Below, piece by piece: positions 4,554-59,100 of a stretch of DNA of 64,000 nt. The stretch is from assembly GCA_963514005.1 (NCBI GenBank), contig OY740808.1, positions 12,648,001 through 12,712,000 of the forward strand. The letters run 5' to 3'. Source of the stretch: Raja brachyura. Lineage: Eukaryota. A program made the translations under genes and the position numbers. The notes beneath the pieces are model-generated. The model was not told the origin of the DNA, did not search any database, and saw nothing but the letters and a program-made list of their open reading frames with translations. The first letter of the stretch is position 1; each line of letters begins with the position of its first letter.

Positions 4554-6140
4554 GTTGCCAGATTCGCCCTGTATCAAATTATATCCAAGGTAAATAAGGA
4601 TTTGGTGTCGAATATTTCGGTACTTTGTACCTCGGTACATTTTACTACAGACTCAGGCACATAAGATACTTTGTTTCGATTGAAAGGAGGTGTTGAATTA
4701 TTTATTTTCATTTATTCTGAATCTTTTGCTGTGCAATTGCGCGGCATGCGCCTTCAAAGAAATTAATCTAATAACCTCATCATAATTTCTGGCGAATGTT
4801 CATTCACTCTTCAAAAATGAAGGGATGCATTCCAAAAGGGGCTGAAGAATCCAATCTCATGGTCTCGCACAAATGTGCGCGTCATATACCTTCACCCTTT
4901 TAGTTGCACACTAACATTTTATTTGAAACTGGTAAATATTCTGGTGAAGATCGTGTGGAGGAAATCTTTCAAAACGCAACGTGAAGAAGCAATAGCCTGC
5001 AAAATTATTTACGAATTTGCAAATTTGGGTGTCAATGCACCGTCAAAACCGCTGCAATTCAGGAAAGCATGCTTGCTAGCAGCACACATGTTCACGGGCT
5101 TTGCACGGGCAATTTAATTGAGAAAAACAATTGAGAAGCATGTTTAATCGACCAAGGAGTTGCTGGCGAGCTTTATATATTAAAGACGTCGACGTCTGCA
5201 CGTGCTTGCGTTGCTATGATATTAATTCTGTCCAACTTCATCTGATATATGAAATTATATTTACATGCAACCAGGGTTGCCTTATACTTGATCTAATGTA
5301 CGGAGATTTTATATCGCAACCCAATCGCGCTAGTTGTCGCGGCAGCGCTCCTTTCGCTTTTTGGATTTTTCCTGCAGGGTATTAACACCAGGTGAATCAG
5401 TGCAACGGCTATGAACAAGAAAATACAGTAAAAAAAAGTCTACATATTCAAAATGTTGCCATTTGGACTAACGATTTCGTTGGTAATTAATCAAAGGAGA
5501 CCGGGCTGTTTTGCTGATTTGCCTGGACAGTTAATACTCGCATTTCATAAAAGTCGTCAGATCGATTACATGCAAAGTCAAGCAAAAGCAACAATGTCTC
5601 AAACATTGTTTCCGAAATTGTTCTGCTCCTCGGTACTTCGGAAATGCTATCTCTGTTGGAACAGGGGAATCATTCCTATGATACGTGGAATGATTATGCG
5701 TCATTTAACTGGCATTAACAATATTTTAGTTGGAATGATCACATTGAATATGTTTCAGTGCGCAACTATGACACCCATACCTAGCCTATTACCAATGTGC
5801 GTTGCCTTTGCTTTACATAAACTGGATACATTGAACAATTCCCCATGCAGGTAAAACAAAAAGCAAGTAGTTCAACTACATCCAGAAGAAAGTAATCCGC
5901 TCTCTGATTCGTTTCTCACACTAAATATTCATCCCCTGCCAAGTAACAATATATTGCCACGACTCTCTTGGTAATACGCAAAATGCATTATAATTATGCC
6001 TAGGACACCCGGCCAACACATCCGTGCCTAATCAGAATAAGAGCAAATGGTGTGCATAGGAGCACCTCTCTTGCTGGACAAGTCACAGCCGATGTTGAGT
6101 GCGAAATACATTGCTATGCTTTGCGATTGTTGGGCCCATT

Positions 6141-7794
6141 TAGAAACATAGACACATAGAAAATAGGTGCAGGAGTAGGCCATTCGGCCCTTCGAACCTG
6201 CACCGCCATTCAATATAATCATGGCTGATCATCCAACTCAGTATCCTTTAGCTGCCTTCTCTCCATACCCCCTGATCCCTTCAGCCACAAGGGCCACATC
6301 TAACTCCCTCTTAAGTATAGCCAATGAACTGGCCTCAACTACCTTCTGTGGCAGAGAATTCCAGAGACTCTCTGTGTGAAATATGTTTTCCTCGTCTCGG
6401 TCCTAAAGGAATTCCCCCTCATCCTTAGACTGTGATCCCTTGTTATGGACCTCCCTAACATCGGGAACAATATTCCTGCATCTAGACTATCCAACCCCTT
6501 AAGAATTTTGTACGTTTCTATAAGACCCCCCCTCAGTCTTCTAAATTCTAGCGAGTACAAGCCAAGTCTATCCAGTCTTCCCAAATATGAAAGTCCCGAC
6601 ATCCCAGGAATCAGTCTGGTGAACCTTCTCTGTACTCCCTCTATGGCAAGAATGTATTTTCTCACATTTGGAGACCAAAACTGTACACAATACTCCAGGT
6701 GTGGTCACACCAAAACCCTATACAAATGCAGTAGAACCTCCCTGCTCCTATACTCAAATCCTTTCGCTATGAATGTTAACATACCATTTGCTTTCTTCAC
6801 TGCCTGCTGCACCTGCATACCTACTTTCAATGATTGGTGTACCATGCCACCCAGGTGTCGTTGCATCTCCCCTTTACCTAATTTGCCACCATTAAGATTA
6901 TAGTCTACTCTCCTGTTTTTACCACCAAAGTGGATAACCTCACATTTATCCACATTATACTGCATCTGCCATGCATTTGCCCACTCACCCAGCCTATCCA
7001 AGTCACCTTGCATCCTCCTAGCATCCTCCTCACACCTAACACTCTCCCCCAGCTTAGTGTCATCGCAAACTTGGAGATGTTGCATTCAATTCCCTCGTCC
7101 AAATCATTAACATATATTGTAAATTGCTGGGGTCCCAGCACTGAGCCTTGCGGCACCCCACTAGTCACTGCCTGCCATTCTGAAAAGGACCCGTTTACTC
7201 CTACCCTTTGCTTCCTGTCTGCCAGCCAGTTCTCTATCCACATCAATACTGAGCCCCCAATACCGTGTGCTTTATGTTTGTATACTAATCTCTTATGTGG
7301 GACCTTGTCGAAAGCCTTCTGAAAGTCTAAATATAACACATCCACTGGTTCTCCCTTATCCACTCTGCTAGTTACATCCTCGAAAAAGTCTATAAGATTC
7401 GTCAGACATGATTTACCTTTCGTAAATCCATGCTGACTTTGTCCAATGATTTCACCACTTTCCAACTGTACTGTTATCCCGTCTTTAATAACTGGCTCTA
7501 GCAGTTTCCCCACTACTGATGTAAGACTAACTGGTCTGTAATTCCCCGTTTTCTCTCTCCCTACTTTTTAAAAAAGTGGGGTTACATTAGCTACCCTCCA
7601 ATCCTCAGGAACTACTCCAGAATCTAAGGAGTTTTGAAAAAATACCACTAATGCATCCACTATTTCTGTGGCTACTTCCTTGAGTAATCTGGAATGCAGA
7701 CTATTTGGCCCTGGGGATTTATCGGCCTTTAATCCATTCAATTTACCCAACACCACTTCCCGGCTAACCTGGATTTCACTCAGTTCCTATGGTA
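6141..7794 (-). mobile_element. CR1 LINE, ORF2 RT and C-terminus, runs into assembly gap
   Basis: [38 protein letters not shown] motifs. (TTTCTATG)n tail at 6141-6162. Confidence 0.95.
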
Positions 7795-7966
7795 NNNNNN
7801 NNNNNNNNNNNNNNNNNNNNNNNNNNNNNNNNNNNNNNNNNNNNNNNNNNNNNNNNNNNNNNNNNNNNNNNNNNNNNNNNNNNNNNNNNNNNNNNNNNNN
7901 NNNNNNNNNNNNNNNNNNNNNNNNNNNNNNNNNNNNNNNNNNNNNNNNNNNNNNNNNNNNNNNNNN
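7795..7966. other. Assembly gap
   Basis: N run. Confidence 1.
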
Positions 7967-8180
7967 GACAGTCTGAAAAGATTGACATTTGTAATGAAAT
8001 GTTGAACAGAACGAGGTTGTGACGTTCAAGGTGATGCGACTGTGAGATGCTGGAATATTCACTAAAACACACAATACTGGAGTAGATCGTCTCGTGAGGA
8101 CATTTCGGATCGCGAACCTTCTTTAGACTCTGGAAAAGGGTCCCCACCAAAAACATAACACAACCATGTCCTCCAAAGAT

Positions 8181-8667
8181 GAGAAGGGTGCCAAGAGAAA
8201 TGGTCTGTCTGATCAAGGATAAAGGATGTAACGGAATTGTTAAATGAGTGTGTTTTGCCAAGGAGAAAGTCATGGATGATGGTGAGATCAGTGTGGAGAA
8301 AGCAAATATGCTCGGGCACATATGCTGGGGCTTGAGATCGAAAAGAACGGCAGTGAGGCTCTTGGGGAACATTGAGTTGGATAGGTCCCTGCACCCATTG
8401 GTATCTATCCCAGTTGATTGAGGGAGACAAGACAGGTGATTCCAGGGGGTCTTTACAAGAATCATTCCTTCTTCTCTAGCCACAGGCGAGCACCAAGAGG
8501 ACTGGAAAATGACCAGTTCTTCCTTTGCTGATTGAAACGTAGAAAGAATCCAGGGAAATAGAGGCCGGTGCGGCTCACGACAGTGGTAGGAAACTATTGG
8601 TGATAATTCATTGAGATTTACTCCCATTTGAAGGAGAATGAGCTGGTTACGATAGGCATGGCTGTGT
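8181..8667 (+). mobile_element. Old CR1 ORF2 fragment (paralog at ~25145-25642)
   Basis: Decayed CR1 ORF2 sequence, collinear with the second duplication unit. Confidence 0.65.
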
Positions 8668-10440
8668 AATAGATAATAGACAATAGACAATAGGTGCAGG
8701 AGTATTCTTTACGGCCCTTCCAGCCAGCACGGACATTCATTGTGTTCATGGCTGATCATCCACAATCAGTACCCGTTCCTGCCTTCTCCCCATATCTCCT
8801 GACTCTGCTTTCATCAAGAGCTCTATCTAGCAATCTCCTGAAAGTTTCCAGGGAGCCGGCCTCCACCGCCCTCTGGGGAAGAACATTCCACAGACTCGGA
8901 ACTCTCTGTGTGAAAAAGTGTTTCCTCATCTCCGTTCTAAATAGCTTACCCGTTATTCTTAAACTGTGGCCCGTGGTTCTGGACTCCCCCAACATCGGGA
9001 ACATGTTTCCTGACTCTAGCGTGTCCAAACCCTTTATAATCTTATATTTTTCAATATGAACACCTCTAATCCTTCTAAATTCCAGAGTAGATGGAGAATG
9101 CCCAGCCGCTCCATTCTCTCAGCATATGACAGTCCCACCATCCCGCAAATGCCCTTCCTCAAATTTGGAGACCAACATTGCTCACAATCCTCCAGGTGTG
9201 GTCTCACTAGGGCCCTGTACAACTACAGAAGGAACTCCTATACTCAACTCCTCTTGTTATGAAGGCCAACATGCCGTTTGCTTTCTTCACTGCCTGATTT
9301 ACCTGCATGCTTCCTTTCATTGATTGATGAACAAGGATCCACAGATCCCAACTTGACACCATTTAGATAATAATCTTTCTTCCTGTTTTTGCTACCAATG
9401 TGGATAACTTCACGTTTATCCACATTAAACTGCATCTGCCATGCGTCTGCCCACTCACCCAACCTGTCCAAGTCACCCTGCATTCTCATAGCATCCACCT
9501 CACATTTAACACTACCACCTAGCTTTATGTCAACTGCAATTTGCAAATGTTACTTTCAATCCCTTCATCTAAATCATTTATATATATTATAAATAGCTGA
9601 ACCTTGCGGTACCCCACTAGTCACTTCCTGCCATTCTGAAAGGGATCCGCTAATCCATATTCTTTGTTTTCTGTCTGCCAACCAATTTTCTATCCATGTC
9701 AGCACTCTACCCACAATATCATGTGCCCTTATTTTACCCACTAATCTCCTGTGTGGGACCTTATCAAATGGTTTCTGAACGTCCAGGTACAGTACATCCA
9801 CTAGCTCTCTCTTGTCCATTTTCCACGTTGCACCCTCAAGAAACTCCAGACGATTATTCAAGCATGATTTCCCGTTCGTAAATCCATGCTCACTTGGACC
9901 GATCCTGTTTCTGCTATCCAAATGTGCTGCTATTTCATCTTGTATGAATGACTCCAGCATCTTCCCCACGATGTCAGGCTAACTGGTCTATAATTCCCTG
10001 TTTTCTCTCTCCCGCCTTTCTTAAAAAGTGGGATAACATTAAAGTGGGCTACCCTCCAATCCACAGGAAATGATCCTGAATCTATAGAACATTGGAAAAT
10101 GAACACCAATGCATCCACGATTTCTAGAGCCACCTCCTTAAGTACCCGGGGAGACCACCAGGTCTACCCAACACCATTTCCTATCAAATGTGGATTTCAT
10201 TCACTTCCTCCATCACTCCAGACCCTCTGGCTAATACATCAGAAAGATTGTTTGTGTCCTCCTTAGTGAACATGTATCCAAAGTACGTGTTCAACTCCAC
10301 TGCCATTTCCTTGTACCCCATAATAAATTCACCCTTTTCAGTCTTCAAGGGTTCAACTTTGGTCTTAACTATTTTTTTCCTCTTCACATATCTACAGAAG
10401 CTTTTACTATCCTCCTTTATATCCTAGGCTAGCTTACCTT
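8668..10440 (-). mobile_element. CR1 LINE, (CTATTGT)n-tail subfamily
   Basis: RT motifs in ORFs 9574-9969 and 9244-9546. Same 5' and 3' breakpoints as the paralog at 25643-27499. Confidence 0.92.
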
Positions 10441-11063: not shown

Positions 11064-11552
11064 CGATGTCTCTCCCTCTTAACCCCATTGTTAGCTGGAT
11101 CGAGAGAGAGGAGGAATGCCTTGATGTTAGAGAAATCAACAGTCATTCCACTGGGCTGTCGGCGGCCCAAGTGAAATATGAGATGCTGTTCCTCCAAGTT
11201 CCATTCAGCCTCACTCTGACAATGGAGGAGACCTAGGTCAGAAAGATCAGTGTGGGAATGGGGGAGTAAAATAAAGATCAGGTATGTTCAGGCGGACTGA
11301 TTGAAGGAATTTAACGAAACGATAGCCCAGTCTACTTTTGGTGTCGCCGATGTATAAGAGTCAGCATCTTGAACAACGGATACAGTAGATGAGGTTGGAG
11401 GAAGTGCAAGTGAAACTTTGCCGAACCTGAAACCACTGTCATGGTCCCTGGTCAGAGAAGAGGGAGGGGGTTTGCGGACTGGTGTTGTATCTGCTGCGGT
11501 TGCCGGAGAAGGTACCCGGGGAGGGGGTGATTTGGATGGGTAGGGATGAGTG

Positions 11553-15685: not shown

Positions 15686-16481
15686 CAGGGAGTTGCAGAG
15701 GGAACGGTCTCCGCGGAAGGCATAAAGGGTTGGAGATGGGATGATGTGACTAGTGTTGGGAACCCTTTGGAGGTGGCGAAAATGTTGGAGGATTATGTGT
15801 TGTATGCGACGGCTGATGGGGTAAAAGATAAGGACTAGGGGAACTCTGTCTCTATTGCGACTAGAGGGAAGGGGCGCAAGGGCGGAGCTGCGGGTACTGA
15901 GTGAGAGCATCATCTATGATGGGAGAGGGGGACCCCCGTTAACTAAAAAATGAGGATATCCGAGTATGAAACACCTCATCTTGTGCGCAGATGCGGTGCA
16001 GACGGACGAATTGGGAGTAGGGGATAGCCGGGTGGGAAGTACCGTAGCCGAGATAGTTGTGGGAGTCAGTGGGTTTGTAATATATGTCAGTCAATAGTCT
16101 ATCTCCCGTGATGGAGACTGTGAGGTCAAGGAAGGGGAGGGAGGTGTCTAGAATGGTCCTTTACTTTTAGCATCATGTTCGACATAGATTCCTAATTGAT
16201 TAGTAGGTCCGTATATGTTGTTCAGCTACCCTCACTCGAATGAGATTCCATCTGATCGCTCCATCTCGTGTGCGTGTGTGAGTGTGTGAGTGAGTGTGTG
16301 TGTATGTTTCTTTGCGCTCTGGTAAAGTGAACCATCTTAAAGTCATTGGTTTTAAATAACGTTCGACAAACTAAATCGCTGTTTTGTCTATCAGGTAAAA
16401 AAACATAAATCTTGATTTCTTACTTCCGCATTAGAAATAATAGTCACGGAAATGTATTGCTCTCAATACTGGACTATTGAT

Positions 16482-19178: not shown

Positions 19179-19944
19179 GATTCTTGGAGGAGAACCAATA
19201 ATTTTGAAGAATCCACATTTCTCCTTGTTCATGATTTTGGGAAAACCCCACCAGGGTCAAGTGATCCGCAGAATTCCCACATATTACAGGTCGTGACGAA
19301 ATATCAACAATAAATGAACTATTATAGAAGGTGCATGTTTGATTAGAATTAGAATTGAAGGCAGAATCAATTTCCCGAAAGAGACACGACATGACGGAGT
19401 AACTTAGCGGTTCGGGAGCTTCTCTGGAGAATATGGATGTTGCGTTTCGGGTCGGGACGTTTATATTCTTGAATTATTTCACTTTATTCACGTCATACTG
19501 TCGACTTGATTCATGTTCTTCAGTCTGAAGAAGAGTCCCGACCCGAAACATCACCAATCTATGTTCACCAGAGATGCTGCCTGACCCACTGAGGCACTCC
19601 AATACTTTTTGGGTGTTTTTTTTGTTGCAAATCAGCATCTGCAGTTCGTTGTCACTCTCATGTCAATGCGCGTTTCCATACGGTCGGTTTTATTCGTACC
19701 CTGGCTTGGTCATTGTTAGCTCATCGTCCGAAAAGTAATTAAGATTTTTTTAAAAACAGCTGGACAGTCATTTCGTCCTTTCATTGCTGTTGTCAACCAA
19801 TTTGCCAAAGGAGATTCGATCTTAGTCGGGTATTCTTTAAAAAATCAGCTTTAAAAGCCTTTTATTGGAAACAACAATCAGCGACAAAAAACAAAAAAAT
19901 CATAGCTGTATCAATAAGCCACAGGTAGAAGATAGTTTACTTAC

Positions 19945-20289
19945 TGCCAATACCCAGCCTCGTTCCTTTGCCGAAGATTAAAGGATTTATCCACACAGCA
20001 CAGTAGTAGTCCGCAGCGTCCGCAGACTGCACATTCGCTATTGTCAATGTTGCAGTGTTGCCTGACACTGATCCGGCGAAACGGTCAGAAACTCCCGATC
20101 CTCTAGTAATGCTGCTGCCCGAGTAATAGTAGAACAGAAACCGCGGAACCGCTCCGGGAATCTGCTGGTACCAGGAAACATAATTACTACTTAAACTGCC
20201 GCCAGTCATGATACAGGATATTTGCACGTTTTGACCCGGAGACGTGGACATTGAAGATGGCTGATTTAGTGTAACTAGCGCATTTATGC
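19945..20289 (-). CDS. IGLV: IgL cluster 2, germline-joined VJ exon
   Basis: CAG acceptor at 20292-20290. Open frame ...VQISC...WYQQ...DAADYYCAVWINPLIFGKGTRLGIG. GTAAGT donor at 19944-19939. 345 nt, like VJ1. Confidence 0.96.
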
Positions 20290-20421
20290 CTGGAAAACAA
20301 AGCAGAAAATATAGCGCATTAACTATGATTAGACAAACAGCAGAAGTGTCAGCGATAGAAACTTTTAAATATTAAATATTAAACATATTAAATATTATGT
20401 CGGTGGAAGTAAAATACTCAC

Positions 20422-22463: not shown

Positions 22464-24682
22464 TGATTTGTTAGGCCGACCACTGTCGTGTTGCAAGTGA
22501 GGGTGTGTGCCATCAACCTCAGCTTTGGTTTCCTTCCAATAATTTTTAATTTTATATGATCTGAATTCTGATGTAGCATACACAGTCATATTCCTTTATT
22601 TATATCATTGATTGTTCTGTTGATTGTTTTTTTTTAGCCACAAAGAATTCGACCATCCCTTCAGTTGTGTTCCACATTAACTTACTATAGTCCAGAATAT
22701 ATTTATTTTCAGAGTTATGCTTATTTTTATATTGGTTCACCTTCTCTATCGTTGCTTGCAGGCAAGTGTCACACTTGGTTATTTGGCTAAATAACAATTG
22801 CCAATAAAATGAAGGTAAACATAAGTGGAGCGACCATAGTAAGATTTGTTTATTGAGGCTTAAGCTCAACAGGCTTCTGTGAGGGTTACCTTAGGATAAG
22901 GTTTGGTCTGTCACTTTATGTTTGCTTTGCAGCACAACCTGGTCTTGGAGTCCTAGAGATGGAGTCTAGTGTGGTCAGCCTGTGGGATGTTGGAACTGAA
23001 GAAGACGTAGTATCTCTAAACATTATATGTGCAGGATGTGTGTCCAAGTGCAGCTGCTGAATGACCCCGTTAGTGATCTGCAGTTCCAATTGGATTACCT
23101 CGTGTTCGTCCAGAGAGTGAACAAGTCATAGTTAGGAGTCATAGTGAGGTGCTCACACCTGTGATGCGGACAAAGAATAGAAGAGTGAACACCAGCCAAG
23201 GGAGTAGGCAGAGGGTTCAGGAATCCCCTTTAGGCATTTCCCTGTAAAACAGCTATGTTCTTTTGCAACTGTTGAGGGGGGTAACCGTTCAGCGGACAAC
23301 AGCAGTAGTCGGGTCTGTGGCACTGGGCCTGTTTCTGATGTGCAGCGGTATGAAGTCAGGCAGTGATTGTGATAAAACACATTAGTGCGGCAGACAGACA
23401 GGAGGAAATAGGGCTCATGGATGGACTGTTGCCTCTCTGGTGTAAGGATCTAGGATGTCATGAAACGTCTGTAGAGCATTTTTGAGCTGGTGGATGTCAG
23501 AACAGACAGAAGTCGTTGTGCATGTCCGTACAAATGATATGTAGGAAAATGGATGAGGTCCTATAGAGTTAGTATAAAGAGATGGGAAAATAGTTACGAA
23601 AAGGGATGTGGGACTGTGGAGTGAATATAGGGAGATCAGCTAAATATAACGAAGAGCAATGAGGTCCTACAGAGTGTCTATTGGGATTTAGGTAAAAGGT
23701 TAAAATCTCTGATTACCAAATTTGCCACGTGTTAGTGAGTGTAGCAATAGGAGGATAGGACAGATGAATGCATGGCTGAGGAGTTGGTGCAGGGGAAATG
23801 ATTCATATTGTAGAGCATTGAGATTTATGTTACCGCAAAGGCAACCTGCACAAGAGGGACAGGTTGCATTTGAACGAAAGGGGCTCCAACATCCTTGCTG
23901 TGAAGTTTGCTCGTACTAATCTGGAGAATTTAAGGTAGAATGCACAGAGAATGGGAACGAAAGGAGCAAGTCTGCAAATGGGAAGGCTGATGAGAGAGTG
24001 GAGGATATAACAAGTAAGTCTCAAAGGAAAGATGGGCATGGAGAGATTCATGATTATGGGATAATTAAGGGATGAAATGTTTATTTCAATGCAAGGCGTA
24101 TTGTGGATAACGCTAAATGAACGTAGATAGTCGAGATCAGTGTTTGGAATAATAATGTCGTGGCCATTATGAAAACCTGCTTGTGGGAGAGACATGTATC
24201 AGGGCTTCGATTTTTGAGATGGCGGTACTCAGAGGTGACATACTGGGGCGGACATCTATTGAGGCATATGGGTTGTGCTTAAAAATAAGAAAGGAACAGT
24301 CTCTCTAACGGGATTATATTATGGGACACCCAATAATCAGCGGGAGATGGATCGGATGTGCATACAGATGCATGAACTACAGTGTTGTTGTAGTGGGTAT
24401 TGTCAACTTCCAAAATATTGACTTATTTTATTCAGTGCAAGAGGGTTAAACGGGGCAGAATGTATGAAGTATATCGAAGAATATTGCCTTGAACGGTGTA
24501 TGGATAGTATGAATCCAGGAGGGTCGATACTGGACCTTGTGTTGGGAAATGAGCTTGGCCAGGTGACTGGTGGTATGCTGGAAGGGCACTTGGGGATAGT
24601 AACCACAACTTTACAATGTTGAATATTGGTATGAATAAGGATTGGTCTGGATGTTGGCAGAAGCAAAACAGGTTAAAATGTC

Positions 24683-24778
24683 GGGGGTTACACAAAAAGC
24701 TGGAGAAACTCAGCGGGTGCAGCAGCATCTAAGGAGCGAAGGAGTTAGGCGACGTTTCGGGTCGAGACCCTTCTTCAG
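24683..24778 (-). mobile_element. 96-bp Penelope-repeat-derived element with a minimal hammerhead-ribozyme-like motif
   Basis: 15-bp TSD ACAGGTTAAAATGTC (24668-24682, 24779-24793). Minus strand starts CTGAAGAAGGGTCTCGACCCGAAACGTC. Confidence 0.8.
24751..24778 (-). ncRNA. Minimal type I hammerhead ribozyme-like core (CUGAAGA-A-GGGUC/UC/GACCC-GAAAC-GUC)
   Basis: All conserved hammerhead core nucleotides, stem II, and a loopless palindromic ACGU in place of helix III. Stem I partner not evident in this copy and activity is untested. Confidence 0.6.
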
Positions 24779-25642
24779 ACAGGTTAAAATGTCATTTGGC
24801 AGGAGCTTGGGAGCAGTTGTTATTGAGTATGTCCACAGCTAACATGTCTGAGTTATTTCAAGGCCAGCTGACCCAAGTACATGATCAGCATGTTCCGGTA
24901 AGGAGGATGGATAACGATGACATGGTAAGGGATCCGTGAATGACTACCGAGGTTATAAACCTTTCCAGAAACAAAGCCGAAGCATATGTCAGATTTAACA
25001 AAGTGGCCTCATATGAGGATTATGAGGAATGGCAAGTAGCAAAGAGCTCAACCTGGTGATCAGTAGGGCCAAACTGGTCATGAAATGTAATTGATGAATT
25101 GGGTTAAGGAAAATCCTGCGGCTTTTTATACATATGTTAGAAACAAGAACGGTGCCAAGATATACGGTAGGTCTGATCAAGGATAAAGGATGTAGCGGAA
25201 TTGTTAAATGAGTGTGTTTTGCATCTGTATTCACCAAGAAGAAAGACGTGGATGACGGTGAGATCAGTGCAGAGATAACAAATATGCTAGGACACATATG
25301 CTGGGGCTTGATATCGAAAAAAGGCAGTGAAGCTCTTGTGAAACATTGGGTTGGGTAGGTCCCCTGCACCCATTGGTATCTATCCCAGTTGATTGAGTGG
25401 AGGCAAGAGAGGTGATTCCAGGAGTCTTGACAAGAATCTTTGCTTCTTCTCTTGCCACATGTGAGCACCAAGAGGACTGGAAAATGTCCAGCTGCTCCTT
25501 TGTTGGTTGAGACGTAGAAAGAATCCAGGGAAATAGAGGCCGGTGAGGTGCACATCAGTGGTAAGAAACTATTGGAGATAATGCATTGAGACTCACTCCC
25601 ATTTGAAGAAGAATTAGCTAGTTAGCAATAGGCATGGCTGTG

Positions 25643-27747: not shown

Positions 27748-29392
27748 CTTGAGGTTGGAGGAGGTGCAAGTGAAACATTACCTATCCTGAAACGAATGTC
27801 GGGGTCCCTGGACGGAGACGAGGGAGGAGGTATATGGACAGGTGTTGTATCTCCTGTGGTTGCAGGAGAAAGTACCAGTGGAGGGGGTGATATTGATGGG
27901 AAGGGTTGAGCTACCCAGGAAGTTGCAGAGGGAACGCTCTCTGCGGAAGGCAGAAAGGGGTGGAGATGGGATGATGTGACTAATGTTGGGATCCCGGTGG
28001 AGGTGGGGAAAGTGTTGGAGGATTATATGTTGTGTGCGACGGCTGATGGGGTAAAAGGTAAGGACTAGGGGGATTCTGTTTATGTTGCGAATTGGATGGG
28101 GGGGGCAAGGCGAAGCTGTGGGTACTGAGGAGACACGAGTGAGGGCATCATCTATGATGGGAGAGGGAACCCACGTTCACTAAAGAATGACGACGTCTCG
28201 GATGTCCGGGTATGGAACACCTCATCTCGTGCGCAGATGCGGTGCAGATGGACGAATTGGGAGTAGGGGACCATCTTTGCAGGAAGCCGGGTGGGAAGTA
28301 GTAGAAACATAGAAACATAAATACATTGAAAATAGGTGCAGGAGTAGACCATTCGACGCTTCGAGCCTGCACCGCCATTCAATATGATCATGGCTGATCA
28401 TCCAACTCAGTATCCTGTACCTGCCTTCTCTCCATACCCCTTGATCCCTTTAGCCACAAGGGCCACATCTAACTCCCTCTTAAATATAGCCAATGAACTG
28501 GCCTCAACTACCTTCTGTGGCAGGGAATTCCACAGATTCACCACTCTCTGTGTGAAAAATGTTTTTCTCATCTCGGTCCTAAAATACTTCCCCTTCATCC
28601 TTAAACTGTGACCCAGTGTCCTATGCTTCCCAAACACCGGGAACAACCTTCCTGCATCTAGCATGTCCAGCCCCTTAAGAATGTTGTAAGTTTCTAGAAG
28701 ACCCCCCCCCCCCCCCCCCCCAATCTTCTAAACTCTAGCGATTACAAGCCAATTCTATCCAGTCTTTCTTCATTTGAAAGTCCTGACATCCCAGGAAATA
28801 GTCTGTTGAACCTTCATTGTACTCGCTCTATGGCAAGAATGTCTTTCCTCAGATTAGGAGACCAAAACTGCACGCAATATTCCAGGTGTTGTCTCACCAA
28901 GACCCTGTACAACTGCAGTAGAATCTCCCTGCTCCTATACTCAAATCCTTTTGCTATGAATGCAAACATACCATTCGCTTTCTTCACTGCCTGATGCACC
29001 TGCATGCCTACGTTCAATGACTGGTGTACCATGGCACCCAGGTCTCGTTGCATCTCCCCTTTTCCGAATCGGCCACCATTCAGACAATAGTCCACTTTCC
29101 AGTTTTGCCACCAAAGTGGATAACGTCACATTTATCCACATTATACTGCATCTGCCATGCATTTGCCCACTCACCCAACCTATTCAAGTCACCTTGCATC
29201 CTCCTAGCATCCTCCTCACAGCTAACACTGCCCGCCAGCTTCGTGTCATCCGCAAACTTGGAGATGTTGCATTCAATAGTGTAGCCGAGATAGTTGTGGG
29301 AGTCAGTGGGTTTGTAATAGACGTCAGTCGATAGTCTATCTTCTGTGATGGAGACTGTGAGATCAAGAAAAGGGGGGGAAGTGTCGGAGATC
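27748..29392 (-). mobile_element. Penelope-like fragment (paralog of 11100-16160) split by a CR1 at 28302-29277
   Basis: PYSQFVHLHRICARDEVFHTRTSE peptide; collinear with 15685-16160. Confidence 0.85.
28302..29277 (-). mobile_element. CR1 3' fragment, specific to the second duplication unit
   Basis: (TTTCTATG)n-type tail, LEYCVQFWSP motif, empty site at ~16040. Confidence 0.9.
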
Positions 29393-30046
29393 GTTTTAGC
29401 ATCATGTTCGACATAGATTCCTAATTGATTAGTAGGCCCGTATATGTTGTTCAGCCGCCCTCACTCGAATGAGATTCCCTATGAGCGCTTCATCGAGCGT
29501 GCGTGTGTGTGTGCGAGAGAGAGATTGTGTGTGTGTGTGTTTCTGTGCTCTCTGGGCCAGCGCTGGGTAAAGTGAACCAACTTAAAGTCACCGGTTTTAA
29601 ATAAAGTTCGACAACCTAAATCGCTGTTTTGTCTATCAGGTCAAACACTATAAATCTTGATTTCATACATTTGACTGCTTCCGCATCAGAAATAATAGTC
29701 ACGGAAATGTGTTGCTCTTAAGACTGGACTATTGATTTTATTTGACAGTTGTGTTTGAATTTATGATTTATGCAATAAGCAAACATCCAGAATATAATCT
29801 TCAGACCACTGAATGTTAATGTATATTTGAAGATGCATCAGCTGAGATTGAATAACATTGGAGGTTCAATTAACAATTTGATTGCTTTAATGGAATCACG
29901 TTCACAATTGGCAAGACAGACGACGATTTTAAACGCAAAGACTGGTCGACAACAAACAATATGCCCAGACCAATTTCTCACAAATAAAGAATGGAAGAAG
30001 GATCAAAATATATCACTTCAGCTCCATTAGGTGGAATTGAGGAGTT

Positions 30047-32434: not shown

Positions 32435-33585
32435 TTAGAGGAAACGAGAGATATAGACGATGATGTGGAGAGATAAAGAACAATGAATAAAATATATGCA
32501 AAAAAGTAAAGAAGGTAAAGGAAACAGGCCATTGTTAGCTGTTTGTCGGGTGAATACGCGAAGCTAGTGCGACTTGGGAGGGGGAGGGATAGCGAGATAG
32601 GGAATGCCGGGGCTACCTGAAGTGAGATAACTCAATATTCATACCACTGGACTGTAAGCTGCCCAAGCGGAATATGAGATGCTGTTCATCCAATCTGTGT
32701 TTAGCCTCACTCTGACAATGGAGGAGACCTAGGACAGAGAGGTCTGTGTAGGAATGGGAAAGAGAATTAAAATGTCCGGTAATCGGGAGATCAGGTCGGT
32801 TCAGGCGGGCTGAGTGAAAGTGTTCTGTGAAAAGATGGCCCAGTCTACATTTGGTCTCACCGATGTATAAGAGTCCACATCTTGAACAACGGATACAGTA
32901 GATGAGGTTGGAGGAGGGGCAAGTTAAACTCTGCCTAACCTGAAAGGACTGTGGGGGTCCCTCGACAGAGACGAGGGAGGAGATATAGGGACAGGTATTG
33001 CATCTTCTGCGATTACAGGGTAAGGTATCTGGGGAGATGATGTTTTGGATGGGAAAGGATAAGTTAACCAGGAAGTTGCGGAGGGAACGGTCTCTGCGGT
33101 GGAGATGGGAAATGTGGCTAGTGGAGGGATCCCGTTGGAGGTGGTGGAAATTTCGGAGCATTATGTGTTGTATGCGACAGTTGATGGGGTGGAAGGTAAG
33201 GACTAGCGGGACTCTGTCTCTGTTGTGACTAAGGGGTGGGGGAGCAAGGGCGGAGCTGCGGGGTACCGAGGAGACACCAGTCAAGGCCTCATCTATGATG
33301 GAAGAGGGGAACCCCCGTTCTCAAAAGGATGAGGACATCTCTGATGTCCTGGTATGGAACACCTCATCTTGGGCGCAGATGCGGCGTAGATAGGGGAATA
33401 GGGAGTAGGGCGTAGAGTCTTTGCAGGAAACAGGTTGGGAAGAAATGTAGTCGAGATGTTTGTGTGAGTTAGTGGGTTTGTAATAGACGTCAGTCCGTAG
33501 TCAATTTCATGTGATGGAGAATGTGACATCAAGAAAGGGGAGGGAGGTGTCGAAGATGGTCCAAATAAATTTGAGTGCAGGATGA
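32435..33585 (-). mobile_element. Penelope-like retroelement, 3' part (RT thumb + GIY-YIG endonuclease + 3' UTR)
   Basis: ORF 32613-33284: CNRRRCNTC...NLIYCIRCSRCGLLYIGET...RLDEQHLIFRLGSLQSSGMNIE. Confidence 0.92.
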
Positions 33586-35064
33586 AAAGCACCGATGCAG
33601 TCCTTCAAGCTGTCCTTTACGTTGGCGTAAGGTTACGTTTGACTAATGTATTAGAATTATTTGAAGAATTGATGTGCATTGTCCAAATAAGGATAGTGGT
33701 GCATGCACTCAGATTTTCTAGGATAACGTGCCGCAGCAACAACATGTTGCAGAAAAATCAAAGCGCGCGGTGCAGAGGTCATATCTATGGTGAATCGAAA
33801 ACCAGCTGTCAGGTAACCGAGACTAGGCATAATCAGGTCTGGTTCTGGTTTGTAATGCAAACTGTTGTATCGCGGGTATGGGTGTGGGCCCTCAACACTT
33901 TTACATACATTTAAATGACTTTAATGAAGGCTCGAACTTGACTGGAAATCAGTGCTGATGATACTTAAGGAGACCAGATGTGACAGCCAATAGTCAATTA
34001 AGACGACACAGATCTGGCAAAATAGATTGTATACATCAAAATACCAAAAGTTGCCCTTTATCACTATGGGAACTGGATACAAACATGACGAAGTCATGCT
34101 TCACCTATGCATCTTTGTTACTCCACAAAAAGGAACTTCGAGGGAAATAATTCAGGGAACATAATTTCTAGGGATCGAAGCATCGGCTCAAGATAATTGG
34201 GAATTTCAGCTCTAATGTCCGAGTGCTACTCCACAAAAGGCGTGGTGGTTTGTTTGCTGCGGCCGATTGTTTCCGGAGGGTGCATAATACGCCAGGGAAA
34301 GTAGAACCAAACAAAATTAATGTTATAAAATTTTGCTTAAGATTATTACTGTTTTTAAGAACCACATAAAAGAAATCTGGGCGTCGGAAATTGACTAATT
34401 AACATAGAAGCTTTAACTAGTTTGCAGGTTATTGGATTTGAAAACTAATCTTGAAGGCTTTACGTCAATCAGATATGCATGTTTATGATTTTAAATTTAT
34501 ACAGAATCTAGTATTTGCTTGGTACAAAATTAGTGCTATTGTCAGAGATAAGCGTTTATCGGAATCGTGGGTACGAACAAAAGCAGAATCGGGGTTATTC
34601 CCAAATCCTTACGACCGGCATAAATCCTTACAAAAAAAGACGTGCTGAAGTAGATCAGTGGGTGAATCATCACATCTAGAGAACATGGATATGCGACGTT
34701 TTGGGTCTGGACCCTACTTCAGATTTCTGATTGTAGTGGGGATGGGGGTTCATAAGACGTAGCAGCAGAATTAGTCCATTCGGTCCATCGAACCTGCTTC
34801 GCTATTCTATCATGGCTGATCTATTTTACCCATCACCTCCATTCTCTAAGAACATGTCAATCTCCACTTTACGTTGGAAGAGGGCTGTTAGCGGGACAAA
34901 ATCTGGCAAGTGATTGGTGGATATAGATAAAGCGGGGGTGGGTTGATTGGAAAATGGTTGGATAAAGGCCTGTGTGGAAACTACAAAAGGTGTGCGATAA
35001 GGAGTAAAACAGTTGCGAAAGTGAATACACGGAAAATAACTGTCCTAGATGTAGTTCCAAACGT

Positions 35065-35150: not shown

Positions 35151-35432
35151 AGACTGCCGCCCCGTCCTCCATACACATACCCCATCCCCCCGCCCCCGTC
35201 ACCAAACCCTCTACCACCCACCCGGTTGCAATGCTCAACCCGAATTCACGCTAATTTCACCTTCTATCCCGCCTCCGTTTCCTCTTTCCCTGCCCCCATC
35301 CACCGCTGTTCCTTCTTCTGGCTCAACATGTCACGCCTTCCTTATTATATGACAGCCGTCTGTCTGTATTCATCCCTAGCACATGTCCAACTAGCTGCCA
35401 TTCAAACTCTTTCACATGTATACATCTGTCAG

Positions 35433-36267
35433 TTATTAAAGATGGGATAGCAGCACATTTGGAAAGTAGTGAAATCATTGGACAAAGTCAGCATGGATTT
35501 ATGAAAGGTAAATTATGTCTGACGAATATAATAGATTTTTTCGAGGATGTACCTAGTAGAGTGGATAAGGGATTACTAGTGGATGTGTTATATCTGGACT
35601 TTCTGAAGGCTTTCGACAAGGTCTCACATAAGAGGTTAGTATGGAAACTTGAAGCACACGGTATTGGGGGTTCAGTATTGATGTGGATAGAGAACTGGCT
35701 GGCAGACAGGAAGCTAAGAGTAGGGGTAAACGGGTCCTTTTCAGAATGGCAGGCAGTGACTGGTGGGGTACCACAAGGCTCTGTGCTGGGACCCCAGCTA
35801 TTTACAATATATATTAATGATGTGGATGAGGGAATTTAATTCAACATCTCCAAGTTTGCGGATGACGCGAAGCTGGGGGGCAGTGTTAGCTGTGAGGAAG
35901 ATGCTAGGAGGCTGCAAGGGGACTTGGATAGGCTGGGTGAATGGGCAAATGCATGGCAGATGCAGTATAATGTGAATAAATGTGAGGTTATCCACTTTGG
36001 TTGCAAGGACAGGAAAGTAGATTACAAAGAGCGGTGAATCTGTAGAATTATCTGCCACAGAAAGTAGTTGAGGCCAGTTCAATGGCTATATTTAAGAGGG
36101 AGTTAGATGTGGGCCTTGTGGCTAAAGGGATCATGGGGTATGGAAAGAAGGCAGCTACAGGATACTGAGTTGGATGATCAGCCATGGTCATATTGAATGG
36201 CGGTGGAGGCTCGAAGGGCCGAATGGCCTACTCTTGCACCTATTTTCTATGTTTCTATGTTTCTATC
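35433..36267 (+). mobile_element. CR1 fragment with an internal deletion near 36028
   Basis: RT motifs in ORF 35459-35839, then a jump to the C-terminal region and (TTTCTATG)n tail. Confidence 0.9.
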
Positions 36268-40904: not shown

Positions 40905-41052
40905 TGGTAAGGAGGCGTGGGAGCTTACAATAGAAGTACACGATTAAACATATGAAGGATAATCATCGATATTCTCACCTGATTGAAAGATAACGCAATT
41001 AATTATTGTTAATAAGAACTTACAGAACGTTAGAAATAAATATTTTACTTAC

Positions 41053-41400
41053 TGCCAACATCCACTCGTGTTCCTTTTGCAAATATTAAACCGCTTTTCC
41101 ACATAGCGCAGTAATAATCGGCAGCGTCGTCTGATTGAACGTTAGATAGTGTGAAAGTCCCCGTGTTGCCTGACACTGATCCGGAAAACCTCTCTGAAAC
41201 TCCCGGACCTCGACCAGGAGTGCTCTTGCTGGACCAATAATAGACTAAAAGCCGCGGAGTACGTCCAGCAATCTGCTGATACCAGTAAACGTTGTCATTC
41301 CCTAAAGTAGCGCCAGACATGGTGCATGTTAATTTTAAGTTCTGCCCCGGAGTGATGGACATCGAAAGCGGCTGGCTTACTGTAACTTCTGCGCGTAAAT
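41053..41400 (-). CDS. IGLV: IgL cluster 4, germline-joined VJ exon
   Basis: CAG acceptor at 41403-41401. Frame ...LKLTC...WYQQ...DAADYYCAMWKSGLIFAKGTRVDVG. GTAAGT donor at 41052-41047. Confidence 0.95.
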
Positions 41401-41515
41401 CTGGGAAAATAAAGAGCACAGTGATAACAATAATTTGTAATTTAAACACGAGAGAAACCTCCCGTTGAGAAGTACTCGAGGAGAAAACTAATTTTGATGG
41501 AAAAAAGGAACTCAC

Positions 41516-41564
41516 AAGTCGCGCAAAGAGCAAGCGCACAGAGTAGTCGGATCCAGTAAATCAT
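41516..41564 (-). CDS. IGLV: IgL cluster 4, leader exon (MIYWIRLLCALALCAT)
   Basis: ATG at 41564, 49 nt, GTGAGT donor at 41515-41510. Confidence 0.92.
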
Positions 41565-50872: not shown

Positions 50873-52724
50873 GGAGGCATGGGAAACCATCACTTCTAAT
50901 GAGTTTATCTTACGAAGTATTCAATGCCATGAGATTGAATTCATCAATGGTCAAATCCCTCCATCCCAGCATATGCCAAATCGCAAATTTACACTGTCCA
51001 GCAAATAAACGGCAGTAGGCTATGCTGAAATCTTGAGGCTACAAGAAAAAGGCGTGATAGAAAGAACTATACACGATCCAATTGAATTTGTATCTAACAT
51101 ATTTACAAAAACCAAGAAGGATGGAGGATGTCGGGTTATTATTGATCTGACCCATTTGAATACTTTTGTAAAATATACCCATTTTAAAATGGACACGTTC
51201 GAAACAGCCAAATCTTTGATTTCTGAGGGCTGCTTTATGGCATGCATTGATTTAAAGGATGCATACTATTCAGTATCCATTCAGAAACACCACAGGAAGT
51301 TCTTGAAGTTTACCTGGATGGATCAGCTCTGGCAATACAAAGCTTTGCCAAATGGGCTTACCACAGCTCCCAGATTATTTACTAAATTGCTCAAACCAGT
51401 ATTGGCTACACTGAGGAGACAAAATCACATGGTCATGGCCTATCTGGATGATATCCTAATTATTGGGAACACTCTGGATTCAGCGGAACTGGCAGTTTCA
51501 GCCACCATGGAAATTTTTCAAAAAATGGGATTCATTATCCATCCAGATAAATCAAAGTTCTGCCCTTCACAGGTCATGGATTATCTGGGATTCACGGTGG
51601 ATTCCACTCGCATGATGGCCACCATACCAACTAACAAAGTTGGGGATGTCATTCAAGTATGTAAGAATCTAAACTGCGCCAGTATACCATCAATTAGACA
51701 AACTGCTAAGGTGTTTGGGAAAATCGTAGCAGTTTTTCCAGCTGCCCAATACGGACCTTTGCATTATCAAAATTTGCAGAGAGCCAAGATTTCAGCGTTA
51801 AAACTGAACGCTGGACATTTCGATAGACCTATGCAGCTGCCTCTCAAGGCAAAAATTGAGTTACTATGGTGGATTGACAATATCCATGACTCATTTAAGC
51901 CCATCATTTTGCCCAATCCGATGGTATACCTACAAACAGACGCAAGCTCCCATGGCTGGGGAGCCACGGACAACTATTCTAGTTGTGGAGGCAGATGGGA
52001 CACCCTTGAATCCACCCTGTTGTTGTCACAAGGGATACATTATTTGGAGATGCTAGGAGCATTTCACAGAGTTAGAGCTTATTGTTCTAACCTTACTGAC
52101 ACTCATGTCCGTCTCCAAATAGATAATACCACTGCGGTGGCATATCTAAATCATATGGGCGGTACCAGGTCAATTTCATGTGATGAATTGGCTAATACAA
52201 TTTGGCTCTGGTGTATTCAACGGAATATTTGGATTTCAGCTACTTATTTACCAGGTAAGCTCAATACAGTGGCGGACACCAGGTCACGCTAATTCAATGA
52301 CAACATTGAGTGTATGTTAAATCCCCAAATATTCGCTAAAGTTACAGCCAAATTTGGTAAACCGGATATTGACCTTTTTGCATCATGGTTGAACCATCAG
52401 GTACCAACATACTTATCATGGGAGCCAGATCCTGGGGCAATGGTGATGGACGCGTTCTCACTAGATTGGGGGAAATGGTTTTTCTATGCATTTCCTCCCT
52501 TTTGCCTCATCAGTCGGGTATTGCGGAAAATACACTCAGATGTTGCTAAAGGCATTCTTATCATACCCGACTGGCCTACGCAGCCATGGTATCCGGTGGT
52601 CCTTGATATGATCAGTCAACCATGGGTTCTCTTAGAGGGTTGCCCACAATTGGTAACGAACCCTGTCTCAGGGGAACCACATCCCTGCCACAGTCATCTA
52701 AACTTGTTGGCTTGCAGGTTCTGA
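50796..52724 (+). pseudogene. DIRS ORF2: reverse transcriptase / RNase H / adenine-methyltransferase-like domain, two in-frame stops
   Basis: ORFs 50796-51008, 51033-52292 and 52314-52724 share one frame. Motifs DLKDAY, LPNGL, YLDD (RT); TDAS, LEM, DN (RNase H); DIDLFAS and YAFPPF (MTase-like). Stops at 51006-51008 and 52290-52292. Confidence 0.9.
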
Positions 52725-53701
52725 ACAGGCCATTACTGCGGTATGGCCTATCATCAAGAACTATGGATACCATTGGAGCATCATGCCGGGAGTCCACCAG
52801 GTGGCAATATCTTACACATATCCGGAAATGGGAAACTTACTGCGGCCGCTCCCACATTGCATACGACTCCGTTACTATCACCGATGTGCTGGAATTCCTG
52901 GCGGGGTTGCATCATGACGAACACCTCAGCTACAGTGCCATCAACAGCGCCAGGAGTGCGCTATCATTCTACCTCAATATTGAGGTAGGATCCAACAAGC
53001 TGGTGTCCAAACTCATGCGGGGAATATTTAATTCCAATCCGCCTAGACCTCGTTACAACATCACCAGGGATATTGGGGGAGTATTAACCCTGCTCAGGAC
53101 GTGGTCGCCCATGGGAGGGATTGAATTGGACAAACTCACCCTGAAGCTGGTGATGTTACTGGCACTGACTTCAGCGCAAAGGGTACAGACACTCCACAAG
53201 GTCAGGATCGACAGGATGATCTCTACCCCTGGGGAAGTAATCTTCTTTATAGATGAATTACTCAAGCAGCATAGACCTGGATTCACAGGGCTGCAGATGA
53301 AGTTTCCAGCATACCCCGCTGATGCAAGGCTATGTTTAGCCACCCATATCCGCCACTATATCAAAGTGATGAGGAAATTAAGGGGAATGGAGAAATACCT
53401 ACTCATCAGCCACAAGAAATCTCACCATAGAGTGACGGTACAGACGATCTCCAAATGGCTCAGGATCGTCTTGAATGAGGCAGGTATTGACACTAATGTC
53501 TTTAAATCCCATTCCACCAGGGCTGCATCGACGTCGGCGGCAAGGGTCATGGAGGTGCCCATGGATCATATTCTTGCCACAGCGGGATGGGCGAACGAAG
53601 CCACCTTCCAACAGTTTTACAATAAACCTGTTGCCGCTCCTGTATTGTTCGCGGAGGCCGTGCTGAATGCGGGTCAAGAGCATACAGATGTCCCCCAGTG
53701 A
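52622..53701 (+). CDS. DIRS ORF3: tyrosine recombinase (open frame)
   Basis: 359-aa ORF overlapping ORF2. Catalytic set R (AQRV), K (LKQ), HxxR (HSTR), W (AGW), Y (FYNK). Confidence 0.9.
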   Translation: MGSLRGLPTIGNEPCLRGTTSLPQSSKLVGLQVLNRPLLRYGLSSRTMDTIGASCRESTRWQYLTHIRKWETYCGRSHIAYDSVTITDVLEFLAGLHHDEHLSYSAINSARSALSFYLNIEVGSNKLVSKLMRGIFNSNPPRPRYNITRDIGGVLTLLRTWSPMGGIELDKLTLKLVMLLALTSAQRVQTLHKVRIDRMISTPGEVIFFIDELLKQHRPGFTGLQMKFPAYPADARLCLATHIRHYIKVMRKLRGMEKYLLISHKKSHHRVTVQTISKWLRIVLNEAGIDTNVFKSHSTRAASTSAARVMEVPMDHILATAGWANEATFQQFYNKPVAAPVLFAEAVLNAGQEHTDVPQ

Positions 53702-56199: not shown

Positions 56200-59100
56200 T
56201 TTCGATATATGTCAAAATCATGGAAGGGCAAGGCACAATTACGCCGCTAACATGATATTTGAGAAGCAAGTGGATGACCTCAGATTCGTCCGAGAAACTG
56301 AGTCGTTCCTCGCCAAGTCCTACAGTAAGATTGTTACGCCTAAGGTGGTGGAAGAGAGAAGGTAGGTGACGGTGATAAAGGGAGGGGAACATGGAATGAA
56401 AAGGTCCCCGTGTGTTGTACCTCTTGTGAACAGGTTAACGCACTCAGAAGCTGTCGGGACAGAAGACGTTATCACACTGAGCGGCGGACTGGCTTGCGAA
56501 ACAAAAACGGCTGTTTAGTCAAAACCAAAGAGGCCAACGTCAGGCAACGCCATTGTAGTTAGAGATTCCATTGTGAGAGGTACGGACAGGAGTTTCTGCA
56601 GGAACAGACGGGATTCGAGGATGGTGTGCTGCTTTCCTGGTGCCAGGATCTAGGATATCACGGACAGAGTGCAGAAAATCCTCAAGGGCGAAGGTGAACA
56701 GCCGGAAATGGTAGTGCATGTCGGCACAAATGATGTCTGAAAGAAGGGGATGAATATTCTGCAGCGTGACCTTAGAGAGATCGGAAAAATGCTGAAAAGC
56801 AGGACCTCCAGGGTTGTTATCTCCGGTTTGCTTCCATTTCCTCGTGCTGGCGAGAGCAGGAACAGGGAGATACGGACCTGAATGTGTGGCTGAGGAACTG
56901 GTACAGGGGGCAGGGATTTGGATTCCTAGATCACTGGGGAGTAAGGGGGAACTGTATGAAAGGATGGATTGCATCTGAACAGGTGGGGGTCCAGCATTCT
57001 GGCAGGCAGGTTTGTCACTGCTACACGGGTGTTTTTAAACTAAATAACCATATAACCATATAACGATATAACAATTACAGCACGGAAACAAGCCCTCTCG
57101 GCCCTTCCAGTCTGTGCCGACCATTTATTTTCCACTAGTCCCATCTACCTGCACTAAGACCATACCCCTCCATTCCCGTCCCGTCCATATACCTATCCAC
57201 TTTACTTTTAAATGTTAAAATCGATCCTACCTCCACCACTTCTGCTAGAAGCTCATTCCACACAGCCACCACTCTCTGAGTAAAGAAGTTCCCCCTCATA
57301 TTACCCCTAAACTTCTGTCCCTTAATTCTCATGTCATGCCCTCTTGTTTGAATCTTCACTACCCTCAATGGGAAAAGCATATCCACGTCAACTCTGCCTA
57401 TCCCTTTCATCATTTTAAAGACCTCAGTCAAGTCCCCCCTTAACCTTCTGCGCTCCAAAGAATAAAGACCTAACTTGTTCAATCTTTCTCTGTAACTTTG
57501 TTGCTGGAACCCAGGCAACATTCTAGTAAATCTCCTCTGTACTCTCTCTATTTTGTTGACATCCTTCCTATAATTAGGCGACCAAAATTGTACACCATAC
57601 TCCAGAATTGGTCTTACCAATGCCTTGTACAATTTTAACATTACTTCCCTACTCCTATATTCAATGCTCTGATTTATAAAGGCCAGCACACCAAAACATT
57701 TCTTTACCACCCTATCTACATGCGATTCCACCTTCAGGAAACTATGCACAGTTATTCCTAGATCCTTCTGTTCCACAGCATTCCTCAATTCCCTACCATT
57801 TACCATGTACGTCCTATTTCAATTTGTCCTGCCAAGATGTAGCATTTCACACTTATCAGCATAAAACTCCATCTGCCATCTTTCAGCCCACTTTTCCAAA
57901 TGGCCCAAATCTCTCTGTAGACTTTGAAAATCTACTTCATTATCCACAACACCACCTATCTTAGTATCATCTGCATACATACGTATCCAATTTTCCACCC
58001 CATCATCCAGATCATTGAATAAGGGGGGCGGGGTGTCAAATGGGATAGTCAAGGGTGGAGTTAAAGGGAAAGAGAGTAAAGGGATGGTTAATGACCCCCT
58101 GAATTAACGGGAAAGGAAGCTCACAAAGGGACAGGAGAGTATGGCCAAGTGTAATAGGGATCGATGTGAAAGGTGAGATGCGTAAGGAACTAAAAGTATT
58201 GTAGATGAATGCGCGAAATATAAGAAGTAAAGTAGATGAGCTTGAGGCTCAGTTAGAGGTTGGTAGATATGACATTGTGGGGATTACTGAGACGTGGCTG
58301 CAGGAGGATCGGGCCTGGGAACTTAATATTCAGGGTTATACATCCTATCGAAAGGACAGGCAGGTGGGCAGAGGACGCGGGGTAGCTCTGCTGTGATGGA
58401 TGAAATTCAGTCCCTTGCGAGGGAAGACATAGGGACTGACGAGGTAGAGTCATTGTGGATTGAGTTGAGGAATTGCAAAGGCAAGAAGACGCTAATTGGT
58501 GTTATTTACAGACCCCCAAATAGTAGCCCGGATGTACGTTGTACGTTGCAGCAAGAGTTAAAACTGGCATGTAACACAGGTAATACCACTGTGGTGATGG
58601 GGGATTTCAATATGCAGGTAGACTGGGAAAATCAGGTTGGTTCAGGACCTCAAGAAAGAGAGTTTGTAGAATGCCTCCGAGATGGATTCTTAGAGCAGCT
58701 TGTAATGGGGCCTACCAGAGAAAAGGCAATTCAGGATTTAGTGTGTCCAATGAACCTGATATGATAAGAGAACTCGAGGTAAAAGAACCGCTTGAAAGCA
58801 GTGATCATAATATGATTAGTTTTAACCTGCAATTTGAGATGGAGAACGATAAATCGGAAGTGGCAGTTGAACAAAGGTGACTATGAGGCATGAGAGGGGA
58901 GCTGGCCAAAGTAGACTGGAAAGGGATCCTAGCAAGAATGACGGTGGAACTGCAATGGTACGAATTTCTGGGCATAATCCGGAAGATGCAGGATCATTTC
59001 ATTCCAAAAAGGAAGAAAGATTCTAAGGGGAGTAGGAGGCAACCGTGGCTGACGAGAGAAGTGAGGAATAGAATAATACAAAAAGAAAAGATGAATAACA

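Follow-up and report, generated by a model that had tools for sequence, protein, structure and literature searches.

Penelope-like elements (PLEs) of the EN+ Neptune type carry a reverse transcriptase (RT) joined through a Cys linker to a C-terminal GIY-YIG domain, pseudo-LTRs (pLTRs) with a hammerhead, a 30-40-bp tail confined to one end, head-to-head arms, solo pLTRs and a target-site duplication (TSD) (PMC8557442; PMC3846280), and in the accessible parts of these accounts the tail, its one-ended position and the inverted arm are known traits of PLEs. The CX2-5CxxC linker between RT and EN marks Neptune and is also present in Nematis (PMC8557442). In PAc, a Poseidon element of Anolis carolinensis, RT can start at two sites, the sequence between them being the tail, and priming takes place on both strands; mutation of the ribozyme leaves insertion normal, the RNA chiefly used is the unprocessed form, and the ribozyme requires protein to cleave (PMC11167929). 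Minimal hammerheads of PLE repeats have been described mostly as dispersed single copies with low activity as dimers (PMC4209133; review PMC6765202). Non-LTR retrozymes are built of tandem units holding two or more ribozymes, have circular RNA intermediates and are expressed as circles of 170-400 nt (PMC7229834; bioRxiv 10.64898/2026.07.22.740005). They derive from pLTRs, and the report of this origin includes one chondrichthyan; its supplementary lists may contain the family studied here (bioRxiv 10.64898/2026.07.22.740005).

We analysed a 96-bp insertion within a stretch of 64,000 nucleotides of Raja brachyura (contig OY740808.1, positions 12,648,001 to 12,712,000), hereafter referred to as the window. 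According to the comparisons given below, the insertion is very probably the solo pLTR of a young and intact Penelope-type element and not a separate ribozyme parasite. An earlier note on this DNA had described the insert and its perfect TSD, and both were re-measured and agree (insert 24683-24778, identical 15-bp flanks 24668-24682 and 24779-24793). The minimal Penelope-type hammerhead recognized at that time was also recovered on the minus strand, where CUGAAGA, one bulged A, stem II, GAAA, the palindromic ACGU and GUC are all present. Its layout stood with respect to the core and had to be redrawn at stem II, which is better described as 4 bp with a CUCG loop because the proposed 5-bp pairing would leave a loop of 2 nt. 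The LINE fragment interrupted by the insertion is presumably CR1/L2-like, given its motifs. The coordinates of these features are provided in Table 1.

Table 1. Features of the insertion, its target and the older Penelope fragments of the window
Feature	Position	Strand	Basis or remark
TSD copy, element's 3' side	24668..24682	.	15 bp, sequence comparison
TSD copy, element's 5' side	24779..24793	.	first two bases (minus-strand GU) match the element's upstream bases
Solo pLTR (no tail) of a probable young Neptune-type PLE	24683..24778	-	2-3 differences from both L094 pLTRs
Hammerhead core CUGAAGA	24772..24778	-	sequence; invariant across subfamily consensuses
Bulged A and stem II (4 bp, G10.1-C11.1 closing pair, CUCG loop)	24759..24771	-	sequence, descriptor
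GAAA, palindromic ACGU (loopless helix III) and GUC	24751..24758	-	sequence; architecture as in the accessible part of PMC4209133
Predicted cleavage site	between 24751 and 24750	-	sequence only
Predicted 3' hairpin ahead of reverse-transcription start site 1	24691..24723	-	fold prediction
3' end, putative reverse-transcription start site 1, short C run	24683..24686	-	62/99 copies end here
Host target: decayed LINE fragment, split by the insertion	24300..25300	+	translated empty site
Older Penelope ORF fragment, thumb to GIY-YIG	32440..33587	-	64% amino-acid identity to parent family
Similar older Penelope fragments	27751-28296, 15687-16159, 11129-11529, 29278-29394		protein comparison

Among the best 30 genomic matches to the insert, 7 extend upstream through a UTR of 240 nt into a Penelope ORF, and upstream walking led to L094, an intact PLE of 4076 bp located elsewhere in the genome. 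Its ORF of 1191 aa contains an RT, a CX4CxxC linker and, at its C terminus, GIY-YIG; the YIDD and GIY-YIG-type motifs can be read directly in it, its Pfam matches (RVT_1, E 5e-4; GIY-YIG, E 2e-3) are both below the curated cut-offs, and a PDB sequence search with the RT-EN part returned nothing significant. Both ends of L094 carry the same unit. The pLTR, with its hammerhead, measures about 97 nt (131 with the tail) and ends before the ORF start. The insert differs from these two pLTRs at 3 and 2 positions, in keeping with the homology to Penelope termini proposed earlier. The parent appears to be an EN+ PLE of the Neptune type, to judge by the linker, which is common to Nematis too. It shares with the described Neptune-type elements all the traits listed above and differs from them, as far as their accessible accounts go (PMC8557442; PMC3846280), in its short pLTR placed wholly before the ORF start and in its very high load. 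In addition, between about 40 nt downstream of the pLTR start and the ORF start, L094 has an upstream ORF of 41 codons. It begins within the pLTR, differs in frame from the main ORF and extends over the main ATG, whose context resembles a splice donor. The pyrimidine tract before the ribozyme was considered as a splice acceptor and rejected, as the solo copies had no upstream exon in common. With regard to the window itself, its five Penelope ORF fragments show only 59-70% protein identity to the parent family. They are therefore older relatives and not the mobiliser, a role that had been attributed to the resident Penelope RT/GIY-YIG.

The copies scattered through the window are 24 according to an nhmmer profile, and they cover 12 of the 12 places already listed in the earlier note. 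The abundance suggested there was also evident outside the window, with 265 profile matches in 600 kb of genome samples, that is, a load of about 0.44 matches per kb, or approximately 1.2 million when extrapolated from 600 kb to 2.7 Gb. Exact 29-mers were counted 40,884 times in the genome for the pLTR 3' end, 12,207 times for the UTR-to-ribozyme boundary and 679 times for the tail-to-ORF boundary. Every subfamily consensus had an identical layout. A minisatellite of 66 bp at L007:570-1120 goes back to an older pLTR subfamily and is without the ribozyme core. The window also contains RT, methyltransferase-like and tyrosine-recombinase ORFs in series (51009-53701, +), which we take to be a DIRS-like retrotransposon; fragments of LINE-type RT/endonuclease (5432-9978, 35255-35839 and 58327-60501); and two immunoglobulin V-set exons running straight into a J-like motif (19940-20371 and 41048-41560, both -), which presumably resemble the germline-joined light-chain genes of cartilaginous fishes.

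A strict minimal-hammerhead descriptor was run on the window, on 600 kb of evenly spread genome samples and on 5 shuffles. It yielded 20 matches in the genome samples versus 0 in each of the shuffles, and a single match in the window, which corresponded to the 24683-24778 copy, while a loose core pattern was barely above chance (11 observed vs 5.8 expected). CUGANGA, the bulge, stem II, GAAA, the palindromic positions 15.2-16.2 and NUH were all found in the insert. The scan of the insert with the Rfam covariance models, a check that had been proposed for the hammerhead, gave no hammerhead match at E<=10. Regarding stem I, the search for a partner recovered a pairing of at most 2 bp (U-G, G-C) in the insert, whose 5' GU coincides with the last two bases of the TSD (microhomology); the helix I of 4-5 bp of minimal type I PLE hammerheads is absent from the insert family, which has only 2 bp. 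The core, the bulge before stem II, G10.1-C11.1, the palindromic loopless helix III and the occurrence mostly as single copies are shared with those minimal hammerheads in the accessible part of their description (PMC4209133). The Schistosoma families reported there have a stem II of 7-8 bp and a stem I of 4-5 bp, in contrast to 4 and 2 bp here, and the D. virilis variant also has a helix I of 2 bp (PMC4209133).

The 31 positions of the ribozyme accumulated 1 subfamily-level change versus 10 in the next 19 positions (p 8e-5), a contrast that speaks for an active ribozyme. The changes seen are located in the loop or convert U-A into U-G in stems I and II. As for the covariation of stem II, compatible one-sided changes were found and two-sided covariation between subfamilies was not; a two-sided stem change was seen in one single copy. 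Folding of the whole unit as a monomer revealed no excess stability (z-score -0.23). In the predicted monomer ensemble, stem II had a probability of about 0.01 or less and the core was sequestered in another stable fold. The ACGU duplex was predicted at -3.1 kcal/mol, and the cofold prediction of two copies did not produce the active dimer. The missing two-sided covariation and the sequestered core weigh against activity, which would probably require a dimer or the assistance of protein.

These results also bear on the possibility that the conservation of the 31 bases reflects chiefly a core promoter, composed of an initiator and an ACGT downstream element, the hammerhead match being vestigial. 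An internal promoter comprising an Inr and an ACGT-containing downstream element is described for the Penelope of D. virilis (PMC2377424), and ACGT is found here at about +27 to +30 from the transcript start proposed below; the lack of two-sided covariation of stem II and its very low probability in the predicted monomers also favor this explanation. We nevertheless consider it unlikely, since the full core and stem II are kept, with the contrast in changes just indicated between the ribozyme and its neighboring positions, the changes seen are compatible with ribozyme pairing or loop, and the ribozyme of PAc does cleave when protein is present (PMC11167929). It must be considered that the promoter and ribozyme roles are not exclusive and can coexist, and part of the conservation could stem from the former.

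The ends of the copies were studied in an unbiased set comprising the 100 exact matches that head the list for contig 1 and those in 60 spread 10-kb samples. Matches near locus edges were dropped and overlaps and local duplicates collapsed, giving 99 copies, mostly from the first 4 Mb of one contig and from the 60 samples. In 47 of these copies the 5' end falls in a 9-nt interval whose last base is the C of CUGA, where the internal truncation rate predicts 2.2 (p ~1e-51); another 18 are internal and 34 further upstream. The UTR is absent from 65 of the 99 young copies, and the remaining 34 are longer 5'-truncated forms. Both full-length copies, L092 and L094, start at the same AGT as the solo copies. 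No excess of 5' ends was detected near the predicted cleavage site (2/99 vs 2.6 expected), nor did the listed jump junctions peak at GUC, where cleaved 3' ends would lie, being spread over positions 24-38. An additional cluster of 5' ends close to the cleavage site, at position 34, had appeared in 8 of 30 loci; it was rejected as ascertainment because the query began at a rare variant base, and it is missing in the unbiased 99. The 3' ends fall at site 1 in 62 copies, about 35 nt further, including the tail, in 35, and elsewhere in only 2. Head-to-head pairs combined a tailed and an untailed arm in 30 of 31 arm observations (approximately 17 insertions, most of them viewed from both arms), with the inverted arms joined at a quasi-palindrome on the 5' border of the ribozyme, often through a 5-nt overlap. 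The TSDs of the TSD-anchored copies ranged from 9 to 17 bp, with a mode of 15, and their junctions often used microhomology of 1-3 nt. Most of the tail-to-ORF matches (L235-L264) were partial tandems and not full-length elements; in them, another copy that breaks off 140-270 nt into the element stands ahead of a pLTR whose start is at AGT, extra bases are frequent at the junction and template jumps after run-off are likely.

The common start has the context CCAGTCT, which fits the initiator consensus, in which A is at +1, and we infer a Pol II initiator located 3 nt before the ribozyme core. Reverse transcriptases copy the RNA cap as an extra G. There were 725 genomic junctions at which a copy restarts directly after the ribozyme sequence. 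In the first 100 listed, counted by hand, the base before AGTCTG was G in 33, A in 10, T in 1 and C in 42 (templated or ambiguous), whereas 14 were without the A. When duplicates were collapsed in these 100, G was found in 32 of the 42 non-C junctions (p ~2e-8 vs one third). A scripted subset of 22 distinct junctions showed 5 G and 2 A, and general junctions had a small excess of G (37/100 vs 27 expected, p 0.014). No clear extra G was seen at the junctions of 26 TSD-anchored solo copies, where there is trimming or joining by microhomology. The extra G at the jump junctions is what a cap would leave, and the start is probably capped. An intrinsic habit of the RT to add dC would yield an identical extra G, and the 5' quasi-palindrome itself could favor termination or joining at the start.

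With respect to the origin of the solo pLTRs, we are confident, on the evidence of copy ends and junctions, that they arise by internal priming on an uncleaved and probably capped RNA followed by run-off. Pol II would transcribe the element from the initiator, and the protein of the element would bind near the front of the RNA and nick the target with a stagger of 9-17 nt. Copying would begin at site 1 or 2, as the 3' ends may be taken for reverse-transcription start sites by analogy with PAc, and would run off after approximately 97 or 131 nt. Joining after run-off would then give a solo pLTR, such as the 24683-24778 insert; priming on both nicked strands would give head-to-head pairs with one arm per start site; and jumping after run-off would give partial tandems. 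Since the copied RNA held the whole ribozyme, the template would have been uncleaved, the hammerhead thus travelling as a passenger. For some solo copies, a very recent pLTR-sized master acting in trans may be involved. As in PAc, two internal RT start sites appear to bound the tail (97/99 3' ends at two sites), both strands would be primed and the template is uncleaved; unlike in PAc, which belongs to the Poseidon clade and whose ORF starts inside stem II, the linker here is of the Neptune type and the ORF starts about 30 nt past the tail (PMC11167929). Run-off from a capped start as a source of solo pLTRs does not figure in the accessible part of the PAc account (PMC11167929), and it was not found in the openly searchable literature, a scope that leaves subscription journals, Repbase and Dfam outside.

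In relation to retrozymes, the non-coding nature, the type I hammerhead and the kinship with PLE pLTRs are shared with the metazoan non-LTR retrozymes as accessibly described (PMC7229834; bioRxiv 10.64898/2026.07.22.740005). Unlike them, the insert is a monomer and not two consecutive units with complete hammerheads, and neither the 5' ends of the 99 copies nor the listed jump junctions are concentrated at the cleavage site. Retrozyme-like tandem arrays that come from this element do exist elsewhere in the genome, at 5 loci, with units of 328 and 311 nt. The 328-nt unit, which bears one full hammerhead and fuses the pLTR plus ORF start to the final 62 nt of the UTR, has 7 junctions over 3 loci (C1:39.47 Mb, C2:59.59 Mb and C22:20.18 Mb; L301/L302/L304-L307). 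These arrays contain 1, 2 and 4 junctions and have internal 5' starts, short TSDs on two of them and private variants common to the units within an array. The 311-nt unit is of the same kind and has 4 junctions at 2 loci, 3 at C1:162.94 Mb (L265/L309-L311), flanked by an 11-bp TSD, and 1 at C1:28.06 Mb (L308). Two arrays start downstream of their end within the unit, which implies in each case a template with two or more junctions. The arrays are consistent with rolling-circle copying; a tandem source with expansion at the DNA level may be an alternative. A more speculative reading, which we hold to be less likely than not, is that the solo pLTRs are integrated "strong-stop" products. A dimeric enzyme would prime both nicked strands at two start sites near the capped 5' end, run off, and join or jump. 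By jumping to the corresponding 3' repeat it would restore a two-pLTR element without a tandem array, and mis-jumps spacing two ribozymes about 300 nt apart would give retrozymes, seen as the 311- and 328-nt arrays. In this reading alone, the unit number and the array-private variants would point to rolling-circle copying, and hence to cleavage by the ribozyme in vivo.

The earlier note had interpreted the insert as a member of a separate non-coding, retrozyme-like family moved in trans. An explanation of this kind would be an independent retrozyme- or SINE-like family of approximately 100-135 nt with its own masters. The frequent lack of the UTR in young copies is in line with this, a solo pLTR would bring its own initiator, and trans-mobilised derivatives occur in this genome, as the 328-nt unit at 3 loci and the 311-nt unit at 2 loci. 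However, the unit is the pLTR of the autonomous element, with a common 5' start and common 3' ends, and the solo copies show no divergence from ORF-linked pLTRs. In addition, the insert has one ribozyme, its ends lie away from the cleavage site and it grades into longer 5'-truncated copies (34/99), the tailed and tail-less forms require sequence outside the 96-bp unit, and the layout is uniform in every subfamily consensus. We therefore regard such a family as very improbable. Equally little credit can be given to plain 5' truncation, in which a cDNA started from the 3' pLTR would end at a stall or microhomology hot spot on the ribozyme's 5' border: the quasi-palindrome that joins the inverted arms, the stable fold predicted over the core and the microhomology frequent at TSD junctions speak for it, but full-length copies begin at the identical base, jump junctions carry the extra G and run-off-and-jump junctions recurrently end at the AGT base.

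As a repeat, the element is of an expected type, and what it offers is insight into mechanism. The starting and stopping points of Penelope reverse transcription are preserved in tens of thousands of young copies. Under internal priming and run-off, these copies indicate that the ribozyme lies 3 nt from a probably capped transcript start and was uncut in the copied RNA, in agreement with PAc in vitro. The model of an uncut template would explain the thousands of lone minimal hammerheads in the genomes of fish, amphibians and invertebrates, and through the rare tandem arrays the birth of retrozymes from a Penelope element can be tested directly.
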